NCBI GenBank assembly: GCA_049968235.1
Contig: JBMFRC010000005.1
Span: 96,001 to 160,000 of the forward strand
DNA: 64,000 nt
Direction: 5' to 3'
From: Candidatus Hydrogenedens sp.
Lineage (GTDB): Bacteria; Hydrogenedentota; Hydrogenedentia; Hydrogenedentales; Hydrogenedentaceae
Positions 38,496-44,866 of the stretch are shown in pieces; within the stretch, counting starts at the first letter, position 1, and each line of letters starts with the position of its first letter. Both the position numbers and the translations under genes were made by a program. The notes under the pieces were generated by a model. That model was given only the letters and a program-made list of their open reading frames with translations. It ran no database searches and was not told the DNA's origin.

Positions 38496-38750
38496 TAATG
38501 AAATGTATAAGCAATAAAAAAAGCACAGATTTCAATTTTCTTTAAACCTTCAATTATAATCTATATAACATTTTCTTCCAGTCGGATATTTCTCCCCTTC
38601 CAATTATCAGTATTTGATTCTTTTGGGATTAATTCTAAAACAAATTATATTAATAGCAATAATTTTTTAGGAACTAAACGAAATGAGAAGGTATTTATAT
38701 ATTAATAGTATTATTATAAAAATAATTATGAAATATTTTCTAAGAAAAGC

Positions 38751-38779
38751 TTGACAAATAATTTTTTTTTTTGTATAAT
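38751..38779 (+). promoter_or_regulatory. Consensus sigma-70 promoter TTGACA-17-TATAAT whose spacer contains a T11 homopolymer, upstream of the 38822 CDS
   Basis: Read directly. A strong SD 'aggaggt' lies 5 nt before ATG 38822. Confidence 0.55.
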
Positions 38780-38821
38780 TAAAATTATTAAATTTGAAAT
38801 TCAATAATAGGAGGTCCAATC

Positions 38822-40378
38822 ATGATTAAGCCATTCAAAAGAGCAACAACAAGATTCATTTTGACAGGCATATGCTTGTTAATTATTACAAGTTCTGTTT
38901 ATGGATTGAATACTGATTTTATTCAAAAAGTTAAGGAAACAGAAAAATTAGTTTACGCCGATGTGAATAACAACTACATAAAAGATGCCCTTCAGAAATT
39001 GATAGACCTGTTTCGTTCTATTCCTGAAAATGATATAGAAAGTGCGGATGCCCTATTAGGACCCCTTCATTTATATAGTTTCATTATAAGCGAGTTTTGT
39101 CGTCCGGAATTTTTATATAAGGAAAAATTATTACAGGAGTATCAATATCCTTCTGACAAGTTATTAATGGCGGTTGCTTATTTGAATAACTCTACTACCC
39201 GTGTAAATACGGCTGTCTCTATTATAAATTGTCTAAATGAGTTGAAGCAAGGAGATAATAGAACCATGACATTTTTAGCGGAGGTGATAGGTGTCTATGC
39301 CTTGACATCAGAAGAAAGTATGAGAATACAAAAAGGAATGGGTTCTGAATTAACAAAGGAGATAGATAAATTATTTATAAATCTTTTCTTTGAAAATTAT
39401 CCGACATTAACAGCCTCTCAATTTGTTTTACAGGACCTCTTAGATAGAGGAATTGAGAAAGTTATTTCCGAATATGGAATGTATAATGTGGATAAACTTG
39501 TGAAAACCTATATCGAAACTCCTGAAAAATTAAATTTATTGGCAGGATTTAATAACACCGATATATCTACTCAAAAACTTTACACGCATCTTTCAGGCTT
39601 TAACAAGGTAGCCAATGTCCTACCTTCTATGAATTTATTCGACATCAAAGAGCAGGTTCTTCATAAATGGGTGGAGATGTTGAGGGAAGAAAAAGATATA
39701 AACACACGATATACACTCATTACATTCTTAAAATGTGGAAGTATTCTAAACAAAGATTGTCAGGAACTTATAAAGACTGCTATCAAGGAAGCCAGCATGA
39801 AAAAAGAGTTAACACCGGATGTCCTATATGCAAAGATTACACTGTTAAAACTTGCTATGAAAAATTACTGGATAAAGGAAGCAGAAGAAATCTTGATGGA
39901 TATTTCTCAATTAGAATTGTTACCTCCTATTCACGGTATTCAAAGTGTTTATGCTCAGCAAAAAAGATTTATGGAAAGAGGAACGGAATATTTTGTTAGA
40001 CTGGGATATTACGACACTGCGAAGAAAGTATTAGAACTCCAATTAGCAAAATACCGCGATAGTCACTTTGAAATGGGGACCAGAACTAAATTGGAAAAGT
40101 TAGAAAAATATCCAGTTGATTATAGCATAGAGTTAATCAATTTAGATATGGTAAAGTCTGATATGAGAAGAAGACCCGAGTTAATTCGTAAATATCTTGA
40201 TGAAATTGTCAAATACACACCTAACCCTGACCTAAAAAACCTTCTTGCTAATCATAATGTAAATCAGCCTTTGAATTATTATACTAAAGACTATCCTATT
40301 ATAGTTCAAAGGTTAGGTCTGAAAAAATTTTTTGAAGAGAGGGGGATACCATACCCTCCCATCGGAACACAAAAATAA
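38822..40378 (+). CDS. Hypothetical secreted alpha-helical protein (first gene of the AT-rich block)
   Basis: Signal peptide 'ILTGICLLIITSSVYG'; 518 aa; no motif I recognise. Confidence 0.55.
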   Translation: MIKPFKRATTRFILTGICLLIITSSVYGLNTDFIQKVKETEKLVYADVNNNYIKDALQKLIDLFRSIPENDIESADALLGPLHLYSFIISEFCRPEFLYKEKLLQEYQYPSDKLLMAVAYLNNSTTRVNTAVSIINCLNELKQGDNRTMTFLAEVIGVYALTSEESMRIQKGMGSELTKEIDKLFINLFFENYPTLTASQFVLQDLLDRGIEKVISEYGMYNVDKLVKTYIETPEKLNLLAGFNNTDISTQKLYTHLSGFNKVANVLPSMNLFDIKEQVLHKWVEMLREEKDINTRYTLITFLKCGSILNKDCQELIKTAIKEASMKKELTPDVLYAKITLLKLAMKNYWIKEAEEILMDISQLELLPPIHGIQSVYAQQKRFMERGTEYFVRLGYYDTAKKVLELQLAKYRDSHFEMGTRTKLEKLEKYPVDYSIELINLDMVKSDMRRRPELIRKYLDEIVKYTPNPDLKNLLANHNVNQPLNYYTKDYPIIVQRLGLKKFFEERGIPYPPIGTQK

Positions 40379-40443
40379 ATTAATAAACAAGAGAGGAGGA
40401 CAAAATATGAAAAGGTTAATACTATATTCATCGGGCTATACTT

Positions 40444-40475
40444 TATCTATCTATCTATCTATCTATCTATCTATC
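40444..40475 (+). repeat. Tetranucleotide microsatellite (TATC)8 within the signal-peptide-coding region of the downstream lipoprotein gene
   Basis: Read directly. Encodes (LSIY)n in the ATG-40407 frame. Confidence 0.9.
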
Positions 40476-42477: not shown

Positions 42478-42502
42478 TAGTAAAAAGAAGGAGGAAAACG
42501 AT

Positions 42503-43771
42503 ATGACAATTTATCTTAAAACAGGAAAAAAATTCACATTAATATGTTTTTTTATATTATGTATTGTGAAAAATGGATATTCGCAAACAGATATAATTGA
42601 AAGTAAAACGATAAATTGGGGAAAGATTTATTCTTTAGTAGTTATGGAAAGACTTCCTGAATTAGATGCAGAAAAAGAAAGAGAAATATTAGAAGAAACA
42701 GATAAAATTTTACATGAAACGAAGTCTCTTTATAAAGCCTGCAATTTTCTAATGAATGAGGTAGCAGAAAAAGATAGGAAGAGATACTTAATTGTTGGCA
42801 ATAAGAAAATAAAAGAAAAATTAGTGGAATTATTTAAGATGAGGATACAGTGTGAATTAAAAGAGGCAATTCAATCCGACTTGCAAGACAGTATTTTAAG
42901 TAGAAAAGATATTTCAGAAGAAGATAAGATGAGAGTGTTAGAGTCGATAAATAAAGAAAAAGAACTTATGAATAGTACTTTGAATTATTTAATAATGAGA
43001 GATGGTGATATGTGTTTAGATTGTTACATTCGTGATACAGAACTGAAAAAGTTGTTGACGCCCCCACCGGGACAGGAAGAAGAATTTGAACCTGAAGGAG
43101 TATATTATAACATAGAGGCTTTTTATTCAGTAGCTCTTAGTACCTTTGTTCCGGAGATGTATGATTATTTGTGGTTATCAAAATATGATGTAGAAGAGTT
43201 ACCTTATTATCCTTTATATTTTTATATACTTAAGGTCTATCCGAAAGAATTTCTTAATGATATATCCCATGGTTTTATAAGATACAAAGATGGGTATATA
43301 TACCGGAAAGAAGGAGAAGGTTTTCGATGGGAAGATGTGTTTAACATCGCAGGGTTACTAACAGAATATAATTCATCTTTTGTAGAGCAAGAAAAGGATA
43401 GAATTAAAACAATATTGGGAAAATACTTTGAAGATTTTATAGGCAATATAAGGAAGGAAAGAGAAGAACTATTCCTACAAATATCTAGTAATAATAAAAA
43501 AGAGGATAGGACTACTTGCAATAGCATGTTAACAGATACTTTTTTTAAAGAATTGAGACTACGAGAAAAGATGTTAGCGATTTATGAGCGAATAGGAGAG
43601 AAAGAGGATGTAGAGGATATAAAGAAGTTGGCAGAAGATATTCCTTTGGATTATCCGGTGTGGGAGAGCAATCGAGAAGGGGACGAAAAACTAAGAGAAA
43701 GATACCTACAACGGGTGAAGGAACTTCAAGACAGAGTGAAAGTATTGGTTGAGAAATTATCTCAACAATAG
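42503..43771 (+). CDS. Hypothetical secreted, highly charged coiled-coil protein
   Basis: Signal peptide ending 'GYSQ'; K/E-rich; 422 aa; SD 'aggagg' upstream. Confidence 0.55.
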   Translation: MTIYLKTGKKFTLICFFILCIVKNGYSQTDIIESKTINWGKIYSLVVMERLPELDAEKEREILEETDKILHETKSLYKACNFLMNEVAEKDRKRYLIVGNKKIKEKLVELFKMRIQCELKEAIQSDLQDSILSRKDISEEDKMRVLESINKEKELMNSTLNYLIMRDGDMCLDCYIRDTELKKLLTPPPGQEEEFEPEGVYYNIEAFYSVALSTFVPEMYDYLWLSKYDVEELPYYPLYFYILKVYPKEFLNDISHGFIRYKDGYIYRKEGEGFRWEDVFNIAGLLTEYNSSFVEQEKDRIKTILGKYFEDFIGNIRKEREELFLQISSNNKKEDRTTCNSMLTDTFFKELRLREKMLAIYERIGEKEDVEDIKKLAEDIPLDYPVWESNREGDEKLRERYLQRVKELQDRVKVLVEKLSQQ

Positions 43772-44042
43772 AAGGAACATTTCAGAGATTAAAATAACAC
43801 TGTTTGAATACTGCTTTTCTTCTCTACTTTTTAACAGGGGACTTTATTTGATTATAGATAAAAAAAAGAACTGGGGATGAGAGGGGAATAAATTCCTAAA
43901 ATAGATATTTATGTTCATAGGGTACATTTGAAGTATTTTTTTATAATGCGGATTGTAACTTATTGAAGATGGCTTTTATAATGAGGTAAGAAAAATAAGG
44001 AGTATTTTTATTGTTTTAGTTTAGAAAATAGTTCAGTTTATT

Positions 44043-44825
44043 ATGTTAAAGCGTGCGTTAAAGATGAGTTTTTGGGTTTGGTATGATTATATGGGGACAT
44101 GGTTCTTTTTTAATGTGAGTTTTATTTGCCCACTGTTATTTTTGGCTATCCCCTTGTTATCTTATGATGTTGGATATTTTTCTTTATTGGGTGGCTTTTT
44201 ATTCTTTCTGATGGTTGCCTATTTTTACTTTGTAAATGTTTTTGTCTCTGCATTTACAGTTACTATTCTTGAGCATAAAGAAGGATTTCGTGAGAAGCTT
44301 ATTTATGCGTTAAAGATTGTTGTATTCAAGGCAGGTTCGGTGTTCTTTTTGTTCGCACTATTTTTTCTGATTGTATGGGTCAATATCAGATTTTATATAA
44401 GTAGCCAATTTTTTAATTTTCTATGGGTAAGGTATATTCTTTTAGGTCTTTTTATGTGGTTCGGACTGTTTTCTTTTATATCTTTGTTGTGGGTTGTTCC
44501 TTCATTATCGTTTAAGAAAATATCCTTTTGGAAATATGTATACTGGGGATATGTCCTTTTATTAGCCAATCCGTATTTTAGTTTTCAGGTGCTTTTTTGC
44601 TATACTATATTATGTATATTGAATATGTTTCCTTTATTTTTCTTTTTTATGGGCATGGTAATGCCGTCAATTTTTTTGACCTGTGCCTATGAAATTTTAT
44701 CCCGGAAATATGAGGCGATTCAGACCTCAGGGGATAAGTTAGAAGATTATCAAATTTTTAGAGATTACGAAGATGAATTTCTCAACCGAAGTTGGGAACA
44801 TCTCATAAAACCCTGGAAATTATAA
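44043..44825 (+). CDS. Hypothetical polytopic membrane protein, Phe-rich
   Basis: About 6 TM helices; very T-rich coding sequence. Confidence 0.45.
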   Translation: MLKRALKMSFWVWYDYMGTWFFFNVSFICPLLFLAIPLLSYDVGYFSLLGGFLFFLMVAYFYFVNVFVSAFTVTILEHKEGFREKLIYALKIVVFKAGSVFFLFALFFLIVWVNIRFYISSQFFNFLWVRYILLGLFMWFGLFSFISLLWVVPSLSFKKISFWKYVYWGYVLLLANPYFSFQVLFCYTILCILNMFPLFFFFMGMVMPSIFLTCAYEILSRKYEAIQTSGDKLEDYQIFRDYEDEFLNRSWEHLIKPWKL

Positions 44826-44866
44826 CCACGTTTTAACCTTTTAACTGTTATGGAAAGGGAGAAATT

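Follow-up and report, generated by a model that had tools for sequence, protein, structure and literature searches.

The closest described analogue of the locus reported here is the MafA-MafB-MafI system of Neisseria, in which MafB and MafI were defined by the same inferential criteria as those applied below and are accompanied by a genus-specific upstream gene, mafA (PMC4287609). Our subject is a set of adjacent genes, g1, g2 and g3, in a 64-kb stretch of DNA from Candidatus Hydrogenedens sp. (hereafter the window, that is, the whole stretch analysed, to which all unattributed coordinates refer; identical proteins are so named by NCBI). Both systems are genus-restricted and consist of an upstream accessory gene, a gene for a candidate or established toxin with a Sec signal, a conserved N-terminus and a variable C-terminus (CT), and an immunity or immunity-like gene. 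In both, silent CT cassettes, each with an immunity gene of its own, can follow downstream, a cassette of one strain being the expressed CT of another, and in neither has a dedicated secretion machine been identified. The two share no sequence homology, and the differences are substantial: the variable protein is itself the lipoprotein, whereas in Neisseria the lipoprotein is MafA; the tails are variants of one predicted peptidoglycan-peptidase fold, of which about three-quarters of the domain is swapped, whereas the MafB-CTs are unrelated folds, mostly nucleases; the partner is a secreted helical protein of 400-430 aa rather than a small cytoplasmic immunity protein; and a simple-sequence repeat (SSR) switch appears to control expression.

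A second parallel is offered by contact-dependent growth inhibition (CDI; CdiA-CT/CdiI) and Rhs proteins, in which a sharp junction motif (HDGWAIEDGIAECY in g2; VENN or PxxxxDPxGL in those systems) is likewise followed by a polymorphic CT and a cognate gene, and orphan modules keep the junction homology that permits recombination. Unlike these systems, the Hydrogenedens locus shows no two-partner secretion, type VI secretion system, Rhs or filamentous repeats; its export signals are of the Sec and lipoprotein kinds only, and its target would be the periplasm. In Myxococcus, the SitA proteins are polymorphic lipoprotein toxins with a lipobox, a C-terminal toxin and a cognate downstream immunity gene, which are delivered by outer-membrane exchange; they are nucleases that act in the cytoplasm and depend on TraA/B. 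The locus differs from SitA in that no TraA/B homologue, evidence of outer-membrane exchange or sequence similarity was found.

The expression control of the locus is best compared with the SSR contingency loci of Haemophilus, Neisseria and Campylobacter, with which it shares a perfect tetranucleotide tract near the start codon and frame-dependent ON/OFF states, a homopolymer between the -35 and -10 hexamers, as in porA, opc and hif, and one-unit alleles among near-identical genomes. It departs from them in its host, which is no host-adapted pathogen but an uncultured member of the Hydrogenedentota, living free or associated with bioreactors; in the position of the tract, within the codons for the hydrophobic core of a signal peptide; and in its promoter tract, which was not seen to vary within a strain.

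Almost all that is known of SSR phase variation and of polymorphic toxin cassettes comes from bacteria in culture, most of them associated with hosts. In the present locus, the two mechanisms occur together in an uncultured, bioreactor-associated lineage, with all of the evidence drawn from public assemblies, and metagenome-assembled genomes can thus reveal ON/OFF alleles as well as cassette swaps directly. We interpret the locus as a native, phase-variable, cassette-switching M15 lipoprotein locus of the polymorphic toxin-immunity kind, a reading to which we assign a probability of about 0.6. So read, it adds to the polymorphic toxin-immunity loci a new form that is confined to one genus of an uncultured phylum and is linked to a contingency repeat. 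An initial annotation of the window had proposed a surface-variation or secreted-peptidase module that had not been described. The M15 domain, the ON and OFF alleles and the cassettes presented below agree with the first part of that proposal; as to the second, no paper linking Hydrogenedentes to phase variation or describing M15 polymorphic lipoprotein toxins was found in the literature searched.

Repeat-number alleles of the g2 lipoprotein gene

The three genes and the parts of g2 on which the argument turns are the following:

38822-40378, + strand: g1, 518 aa, genus-restricted, predicted to be secreted, with an alpha-solenoid like that of tetratricopeptide repeat (TPR) proteins
40407/40543-42477, + strand: g2, phase-variable prolipoprotein gene, OFF in the window
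40444-40475, + strand: (TATC)8, candidate slipped-strand switch, in the hydrophobic core of the g2 signal peptide
40495-40509, + strand: lipobox L-I-S-G-C, its Cys (predicted to be lipidated) followed by Pro-Pro; readable in the ON frame only
40510-42150, + strand: conserved Cys-rich N-terminal and central region of g2, with divergent InlB B-repeat-like beta domains and a GPDGRD linker
42109-42150, + strand: junction motif HDGWAIEDGIAECY, the end of the conserved g2 region
42058-42477, + strand: Peptidase M15 domain (PF08291; LAS-type zinc D-Ala-D-Ala carboxypeptidase family)
42503-43771, + strand: g3, 422 aa, predicted to be secreted and all-helical; type 1 partner of the g2 tail

The (TATC)8 tract (8.0 copies, 100% matches in Tandem Repeats Finder) is the top-scoring tandem repeat of the window and lies 37 nt past an ATG codon. 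The frame opened by this ATG (40407) crosses the repeat and stops at 40548-40550 after 47 codons, and the 1.9-kb main open reading frame (ORF; 40543-42477) occupies the +1 frame. When other repeat numbers were modelled, n = 4, 7 or 10 gave products of 684-692 aa, and n = 5, 6, 8, 9, 11 or 12 gave products of 24-51 aa. The product of the fused frame starts MKRLILYSSGYTLSIYLSIYLSLLSISILISGC and comprises a signal peptide, the hydrophobic core of which is encoded by the repeat, and then the lipobox, kept in g2 orthologues as LISGC, LVSGC or FLGC.

Both alleles are found among public assemblies. An exact-protein look-up of g1 led to L001 (loci and contigs are referred to by L numbers and proteins by P numbers), a 4,027-nt contig of GCA_049971155.1 (MGC9054264.1), which matches window positions 38657-42687 without mismatch, a single 4-nt gap being the only difference; the contig carries (TATC)7 and a called g2 of 688 aa, and is thus ON. 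A third assembly, GCA_049969095.1, has (TATC)8, such that g2 is OFF in two of the three assemblies of this strain, and NCBI holds both g2 annotations, of 688 aa and 644 aa. The same one-unit difference recurs in a pair from a sister species, L019 (ERZ27247220) and L020 (SRR8554444), which over 7,702 shared nt differ by 2 mismatches and by one 4-nt gap, located at the tract: L019 has 4 units and is ON (664 aa), and L020 has 5 units and is OFF. Other g2 orthologues carry (TATC)6, (TATC)4 or (TC)6 at this position; a repeat is present at the same signal-peptide site in five of the six g2 lineages and has been lost in that of L021. Those proteins of the L016-type cluster for which the annotated start is a GTG just past the signal peptide (640-aa forms, among them P0097 and P0099) probably represent further OFF alleles.

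A frameshift of this kind might also arise if g2 were a decaying pseudogene or if the repeat had been misread during sequencing or assembly. The out-of-frame count does occur in both the window and L006, and decay is seen elsewhere in the family, in the form of a Pro in place of the first zinc-ligand His in the expressed tail of L005 and an in-frame stop in one g3 copy of L016. This explanation is nevertheless scarcely credible, considering that the 1.9-kb downstream frame is fully open, that the ON allele differs by one unit only over 4 kb, that an independent species displays the same one-unit pattern, and that the repeat has kept its site in lineages whose proteins are 46-74% identical. Comparison of these alleles thus argues very strongly for slippage of (TATC)n as a toggle of g2 translation.

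In the OFF allele, a GGAG stands 9 nt ahead of GTG 40543 (40530-40545), a codon that overlaps with the last part of the 47-codon leader ORF. If translation were re-initiated there by coupling, the product could be a signal-less, cytoplasmic form of g2, which the 644-aa form annotated at NCBI matches exactly.

The M15 domain and the tail-g3 cassettes

The C-terminus of g2 matches PF08291 (Peptidase_M15_3) with 36.0 bits against a cut-off of 23.2 and contains the zinc motifs H-x6-D, in SKHLLGKAFD (42244-42273), and H-x-H, in HGHVG (42445-42459). Full-length g2 had no match among PDB sequences; the profile of its domain came nearest to 1LBU, the Zn D-Ala-D-Ala carboxypeptidase of Streptomyces albus G (E = 0.0018 over ~60 residues, across H-x6-D). 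The likeness to 1LBU and Peptidase_M15_3 lies in the surroundings of the zinc ligands, x-R-x(3)-N-x(2)-G-x(4)-S-x-H-x(2)-G-x-A-x-D, and in the terminal H-x-H, but the match is very distant, and g2 has an extra Cys-rich pre-domain (GPDGRD...MYENP) common to only ~70 of 1.84e9 proteins. An exhaustive HMMER search of these 1.84e9 representatives returned 69 proteins at E <= 1e-3, among which the only other full-length relative was P0026 (48% identity); a few proteins of 600 aa share the pre-M15 'GPDGRD' region together with an N-terminal InlB B-repeat domain. The protein has 26 Cys, and its matches to Flg_new_2 (B-repeat) are sub-threshold; the distant relatives P0029 and P0030 combine Flg_new_2 with M15_3. 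In our alignment A7, the final His of H-x-H is invariant, and 8 of the 9 sequences also have the His of H-x6-D; only the main copy of L005 lacks it. Judging from the domain, the zinc ligands and the lipobox, g2 is likely to be a lipid-anchored peptidoglycan peptidase.

The exceptional expressed tail of L005 (2918-4819 of that contig) reads SKPLLGKAFD, with Pro for His, and a silent cassette 1.7 kb downstream retains the His. Possible explanations of the Pro are that the allele is inactive, that the change stems from a sequencing error, or that the copy is yet to be repaired by conversion.

The two neighbouring proteins have signal-peptide-like N-termini, and neither they nor the product of the next gene, g4, gave a significant match in Pfam, NCBIfam, PADLOC or PDB sequences. 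The structural model of g1 has generic TPR matches only, none of them to known secretion components beyond generic TPR similarity; the protein is possibly a periplasmic scaffold or chaperone with an accessory role. That of g3 (predicted local distance difference test score 84, predicted template modelling score 0.81) is an all-helical bundle, for which a fold search likewise gave generic matches only. Among g3 homologues (alignment A6), C117 is invariant, as is C171 in a DGDxCxxC motif in which C174 is nearly so, and the rest is variable. These Cys could form a disulfide or a metal site, and might bear on the inhibition of a zinc enzyme.

The variability of g2 is sharply delimited. In alignment A3, nearly every column is invariant through HDGWAIEDGIAECY, whereupon conservation collapses; the polymorphic cassette part extends from ~42160 (EQAY) to the stop codon. 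A word-indexed search of 5.8e9 proteins recovered 3 clusters for g2, 13 for g3 and 9 for g1, all of those with a source name being Candidatus Hydrogenedens. A profile scan of genome contigs with the g1 alignment found the L005 contig only, and scans of metagenome contigs gave nothing for g3 and one weak, M15-only match (L008) for g2. The g2-bearing genomes have the order g1-g2-g3, often followed by a fragment corresponding to the last ~100 M15 residues and a second g3 paralogue (L002, L005 and L016), with variants of this tail-fragment and g3 layout in L009 and in L019/L014. The orphan cassettes that we read lack the N-terminal region of g2, and those of L005, L009 and L019/L014 follow in-frame stops.

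The tails fall into discrete types, each with a g3 to match. Type 1 comprises the main tail of the window, the orphans of L005 and L009, and L015, the g3 proteins of which are 54-84% identical; type 2, the main tail of L005 and the orphan of L002, with g3 57% identical; and type 3, the main tail of L002 and the orphan of L016, with g3 that are mutual best matches. Between tail types, g3 identity is 33-47%. Over ten modules from 7 loci, the identity matrices of tail and g3 correlate with a Spearman coefficient of 0.83 (permutation p = 5e-5). The best partner by tail is also the best by g3 in 6 of the 10 modules, and in 3 more (the window main and the orphans of L005 and L009) the two differ within one tail type. 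A single tail type occupies the expressed ('main') position in some genomes and the silent ('orphan') position in others.

The modules are bounded by repeats suited to their exchange. In L005, a direct repeat of 172 nt (98.3%) marks the 5' junction of the modules, and one of 206 nt (93.7%) the 3' ends of g3; the repeats kept in other genomes measure 33-111 nt (92-94%). Comparison of P0026 and P0100 further shows a completed tail replacement between near-identical g2: the two proteins are 98.9% identical over 617 aa and then carry different tails, that of P0100 being 89% identical to the silent cassette of L019. From the repeats and the swapped tail we judge it highly probable that homologous recombination exchanges tail+g3 modules.

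Several of the silent modules have peculiarities of their own. The silent type-3 tail of L016 is followed by a g3 paralogue (15314-16510) with an in-frame TAG (...KTKK*WYLSAKY...), and the single-cell genome copy, L017, is identical over this stretch, stop included; this would be an immunity-like orphan, either in decay or translated by readthrough. In L009 (1-11693), unrelated genes for ATP_bind_3, pectate-lyase-like, DUF4838 and NPCBM proteins follow the silent type-1 tail and g3 in place of g4-eno, which puts the locus, or a copy of its module, in a different context in that organism. At the end of the L005 contig (8519-8793), just downstream of a match to the N-terminus of g4, there are three tandem units of ~95 nt (93-94% identity).

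Proposed function and its alternatives

In the mechanism that we propose, variation would arise in two ways. In one, gain or loss of one TATC unit would shift the frame of g2, n = 7 giving the 688-aa lipoprotein and n = 8 a stop after 47 codons; g3 has a ribosome-binding site of its own and should still be makeable with g2 OFF. In the other, cassette switching would act on the last ~100 residues of g2 (from just before H-x6-D through the final H-x-H), with homologous recombination at the near-identical repeats moving a silent tail+g3 module into the expressed gene. The g2 protein would act as a peptidoglycan-degrading effector in the periplasm of neighbouring cells and g3 as its type-specific periplasmic inhibitor, whereas the TPR-like periplasmic protein g1 would be an accessory factor, as MafA is for MafB. 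By analogy with the systems outlined above, we put the chance that g2 is a toxin used between bacteria, g3 the immunity protein against it in the periplasm and g1 an accessory at even or slightly below. A more elaborate version is tentative: the g2 tail and g3 might form a 'lock-and-key' pair for discrimination of kin or strains, or for attack on the walls of neighbours (lysis of non-kin, scavenging of necromass), its specificity being reset by the swapping of a partial catalytic domain along with the inhibitor, and the weapon being stochastically silenced by the SSR with immunity retained.

Several observations weigh against this interpretation. Every tail is of the M15 fold, with no variety of toxin folds, and the swap involves only part of that domain. 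At ~420 aa, g3 exceeds the usual size of an immunity protein; moreover, the L010-L013 lineage has g1 and g3 but no g2, so that these two proteins may function independently of it. There is no evident dedicated delivery system, a Sec/lipoprotein signal being all that was found. In the OFF state, the untranslated stretch of 2 kb could cut g3 expression by polarity. The evidence for ON and OFF alleles consists of consensus assemblies rather than reads or cultures, and the window itself has no orphan cassette. The co-variation of tail and g3, which are adjacent segments, could reflect linkage alone, and the best partners of the L019 main module are discordant, its tail pointing to the L009 orphan and its g3 to the L005 main. 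Finally, L014 (1549-2583) and L019 (14990-16030) have a silent type-4 tail followed by ~700 nt of non-coding DNA and no g3; this tail, which is expressed in P0100, is the sole exception to the rule that tail and g3 form a module.

The chief rival, which we consider unlikely, is evasion through variation of a surface protein. Here g2 would be a variable surface lipoprotein, for instance a phage or predator receptor or an adhesin, the SSR and the C-terminal epitope would allow escape from phages or grazers, and g3 would be a structural or export partner matched to the tail. ON/OFF switching by SSR is typical of surface structures (PMC11868660; see also PMC6625227), the B-repeat-like domains in the N-terminal part of g2 are typical of surface proteins, and g1 and the g2 N-terminus also occur as deeply divergent alleles that run against the species tree, which fits diversifying selection on the entire protein; the persistence of g3 without g2 points the same way. 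The swapped segment, by contrast, is a catalytic core with preserved zinc ligands and not an epitope domain rich in loops; a separate, co-varying secreted protein is part of every module, which is the signature of an enzyme-inhibitor pair; and there are no phage-related genes nearby.

Still less probable is that the locus serves the remodelling of the cell's own wall, with g2 as an autolysin or DD-/LD-peptidase, g3 as its periplasmic regulator and g1 as a scaffold, in the vicinity of the division gene ftsB. M15 does include housekeeping peptidoglycan peptidases, as is well established, the position beside eno-ftsB is fixed wherever the flank was recovered, except in L009, and g1, g3 and g4 are conserved even without g2. 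The absence of g2 from one lineage and its OFF state in two of the three assemblies of the strain, however, mark it as dispensable, and silent cassettes, tail swapping and extreme allelic divergence are atypical of housekeeping autolysins.

The toxin-immunity reading offers a concrete candidate effector-inhibitor pair, namely, the M15 tail types and their g3 partners, and prompts one to ask by what route a lipid-anchored peptidoglycan peptidase might enter the periplasm of a neighbour. If it is true, the locus would represent a new effector family as well as a new way to diversify specificity, by partial exchange of a catalytic domain. Should the lock-and-key version hold, this would be the first polymorphic peptidoglycan-peptidase effector in Hydrogenedentota to be controlled by a contingency locus and to travel as a lipoprotein, with no known secretion machine involved. 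If the toxin reading fails, the locus would still be a clear case of programmed surface variation outside pathogens.

Origin, promoter and neighbouring genes

The interval of 38.5-44.9 kb contains four ORFs, all on the + strand, set between conserved core genes. In addition to g1, g2 and g3, its features are as follows:

37545-38495, + strand: gene for a SurA/parvulin-type peptidyl-prolyl isomerase (PPIase), upstream flank; Pfam Rotamase and SurA_N; syntenic in all relatives
38751-38779, + strand: predicted sigma-70-type promoter of the g1-g2-g3 operon, with TTGACA at 38751-38756, a 17-nt spacer and TATAAT at 38774-38779
44043-44825, + strand: g4, 260-aa polytopic membrane protein with ~5-6 hydrophobic segments
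44867-46153, + strand: enolase gene, downstream flank; Pfam Enolase_N and Enolase_C

The initial annotation had described this interval as an apparently horizontally acquired, AT-rich unit of four genes for exported or membrane proteins, placed between core genes with an rpoC terminator just upstream and equipped with two simple-sequence contingency features. Its four ORFs were recovered at the coordinates given, the identity of the flanks was confirmed by Pfam (PPIase, enolase and the FtsB/DivIC gene that accompanies enolase downstream), and export or membrane location is indeed predicted, from signal peptides in g1 and g3, the lipobox of g2 once its frame is corrected, and the hydrophobic segments of g4. 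The contrast in GC content was overstated: 1-kb bins of the block are low, at 31-39%, but rpoBC has 40-44% rather than 43-53%, and the window as a whole ~39%.

Foreign origin is a different matter. Relative to the 41 other long ORFs of the window, whole-gene GC is low (z = -2.6 for g1, -3.3 for g3 and -2.9 for g4), the families are confined to few clusters, and the phylogeny of g1 and g2 conflicts with the flanks, all of which would suit a genomic island recently acquired between ppiC and eno. GC at third codon positions (GC3), however, is unremarkable (z = -0.5, -1.5, -1.9 and +0.9 for g1-g4), and the synonymous codon log-likelihood (z = +0.65 to +2.0 for g1-g4) indicates an average or better fit to the pooled usage. 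Since GC3 and codon usage are native, the AT-richness can be attributed to amino-acid composition, these being exported proteins rich in Lys, Asn, Ile, Tyr and Phe. No tRNA gene was found in 30-50 kb, no large flanking direct repeats were detected, and there is no integrase-like domain among the four block proteins.

Synteny likewise counts against insertion. The neighbourhood in relatives is rpoB-rpoC-small ORF-PPIase-[locus]-eno-ftsB-phoH, with the enolase synteny holding wherever the downstream flank was recovered, except in L009. Genes g1-(g2)-g3-g4 occupy the PPIase-eno interval of every Hydrogenedens relative recovered, including a 2013 single-cell genome (GCA_000405145.1). In the L010-L013 lineage, the RpoC of which is 88% identical, the same interval contains g1 (~442 aa), g3 and g4, without g2 and without the SSR; the interval was therefore ancestrally occupied, and g2 represents either a clade-specific gain or a loss in this lineage. 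The called starts of g1 differ among L010-L012, which we considered as a possible SSR effect and rejected, the DNA being identical and the difference one of gene calling. An island recently acquired is accordingly very improbable, and the composition and synteny data indicate that the locus is native, genus-restricted and fast-evolving.

Part of the horizontal idea survives in qualified form. Between the window and L016/L019, RpoC is 95/94% and PPIase 91/92% identical, as compared to 92% and 86% with L002, whereas the identity of g1 is 46-47% to L016/L019 and 70% to L002, and that of g2 48% versus 72-74%. This pattern is opposite to that of the flanks, and the hypervariable region g1-g2-g3 therefore behaves as an exchangeable allelic region, in the manner of capsule or O-antigen loci. 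Discordance of this degree (95% for RpoC and 46% for g1 in the comparison with L016) implies recombinational allele exchange or an old balanced polymorphism.

Nor do all four genes appear to belong together. Genes g1, g2 and g3 are tightly spaced (28 nt between g1 and g2, 25 nt between g2 and g3) and each has a strong Shine-Dalgarno sequence, but g4 lies 271 nt beyond g3, has no obvious Shine-Dalgarno sequence, and tracks the housekeeping genes in its identity pattern (76% to L016, 51% to L010). Because of this gap and its housekeeping-like evolution, g4 is probably a conserved neighbour rather than part of the variable unit. A terminator scan found none between g3 and g4, and 43760-44045 folds no better than shuffled sequences (z = -0.6).

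The promoter, TTGACA-17 nt-TATAAT, is the sole 12/12 consensus match within 37-47 kb, with a TG preceding the -10 hexamer, and its spacer encloses a T11 tract (38762-38772). Both repeats of the initial annotation, T11 and (TATC)8, are thus present; a contingency role is backed by ON and OFF alleles for (TATC)n, but no within-strain change of length was seen for the T-tract, which is T11 in the window and L001 and T12 in L016-L018 and in L019/L020. The arrangement of a -35 hexamer, 5 nt and then poly-T is kept in all relatives, with T7 (in the g2-less lineage), T9, T10, T11, T12 or T14 and a spacer that stays at 16-18 nt; the differences are only between species, and the L004 contig starts inside the tract. 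By analogy with other contingency loci, the T-tract might plausibly serve as a transcriptional 'volume control'.

A 30-nt inverted repeat (38735-38764 and 39368-39397, 87% complementary, 603 nt apart) covers the -35 hexamer with its first arm and lies inside g1 with its second. An invertible promoter was considered and rejected, given that inversion would disrupt g1 and the second arm is coding; the repeat is probably due to chance in AT-rich DNA.

The rpoC terminator does not directly precede the block. The hairpin at 37283-37333, which has near-perfect 25-nt arms and T-runs on both sides, lies 32 nt past the rpoC stop codon and 1.2 kb upstream of the block, before a small conserved ORF and the PPIase gene; the terminator scan reported it on the minus strand only, and it is probably a bidirectional intrinsic terminator. 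The small ORF (37356-37511, + strand), between rpoC and the PPIase gene, encodes 51 aa (MKHIKPISARTKELDWGLNSGLGGIMVIIQAIISLLNAIGSIKGTGSETTNN) with one hydrophobic segment, and a gene of 51-61 aa is called at the same spot in the relatives L002, L010-L013, L016 and L018-L020.

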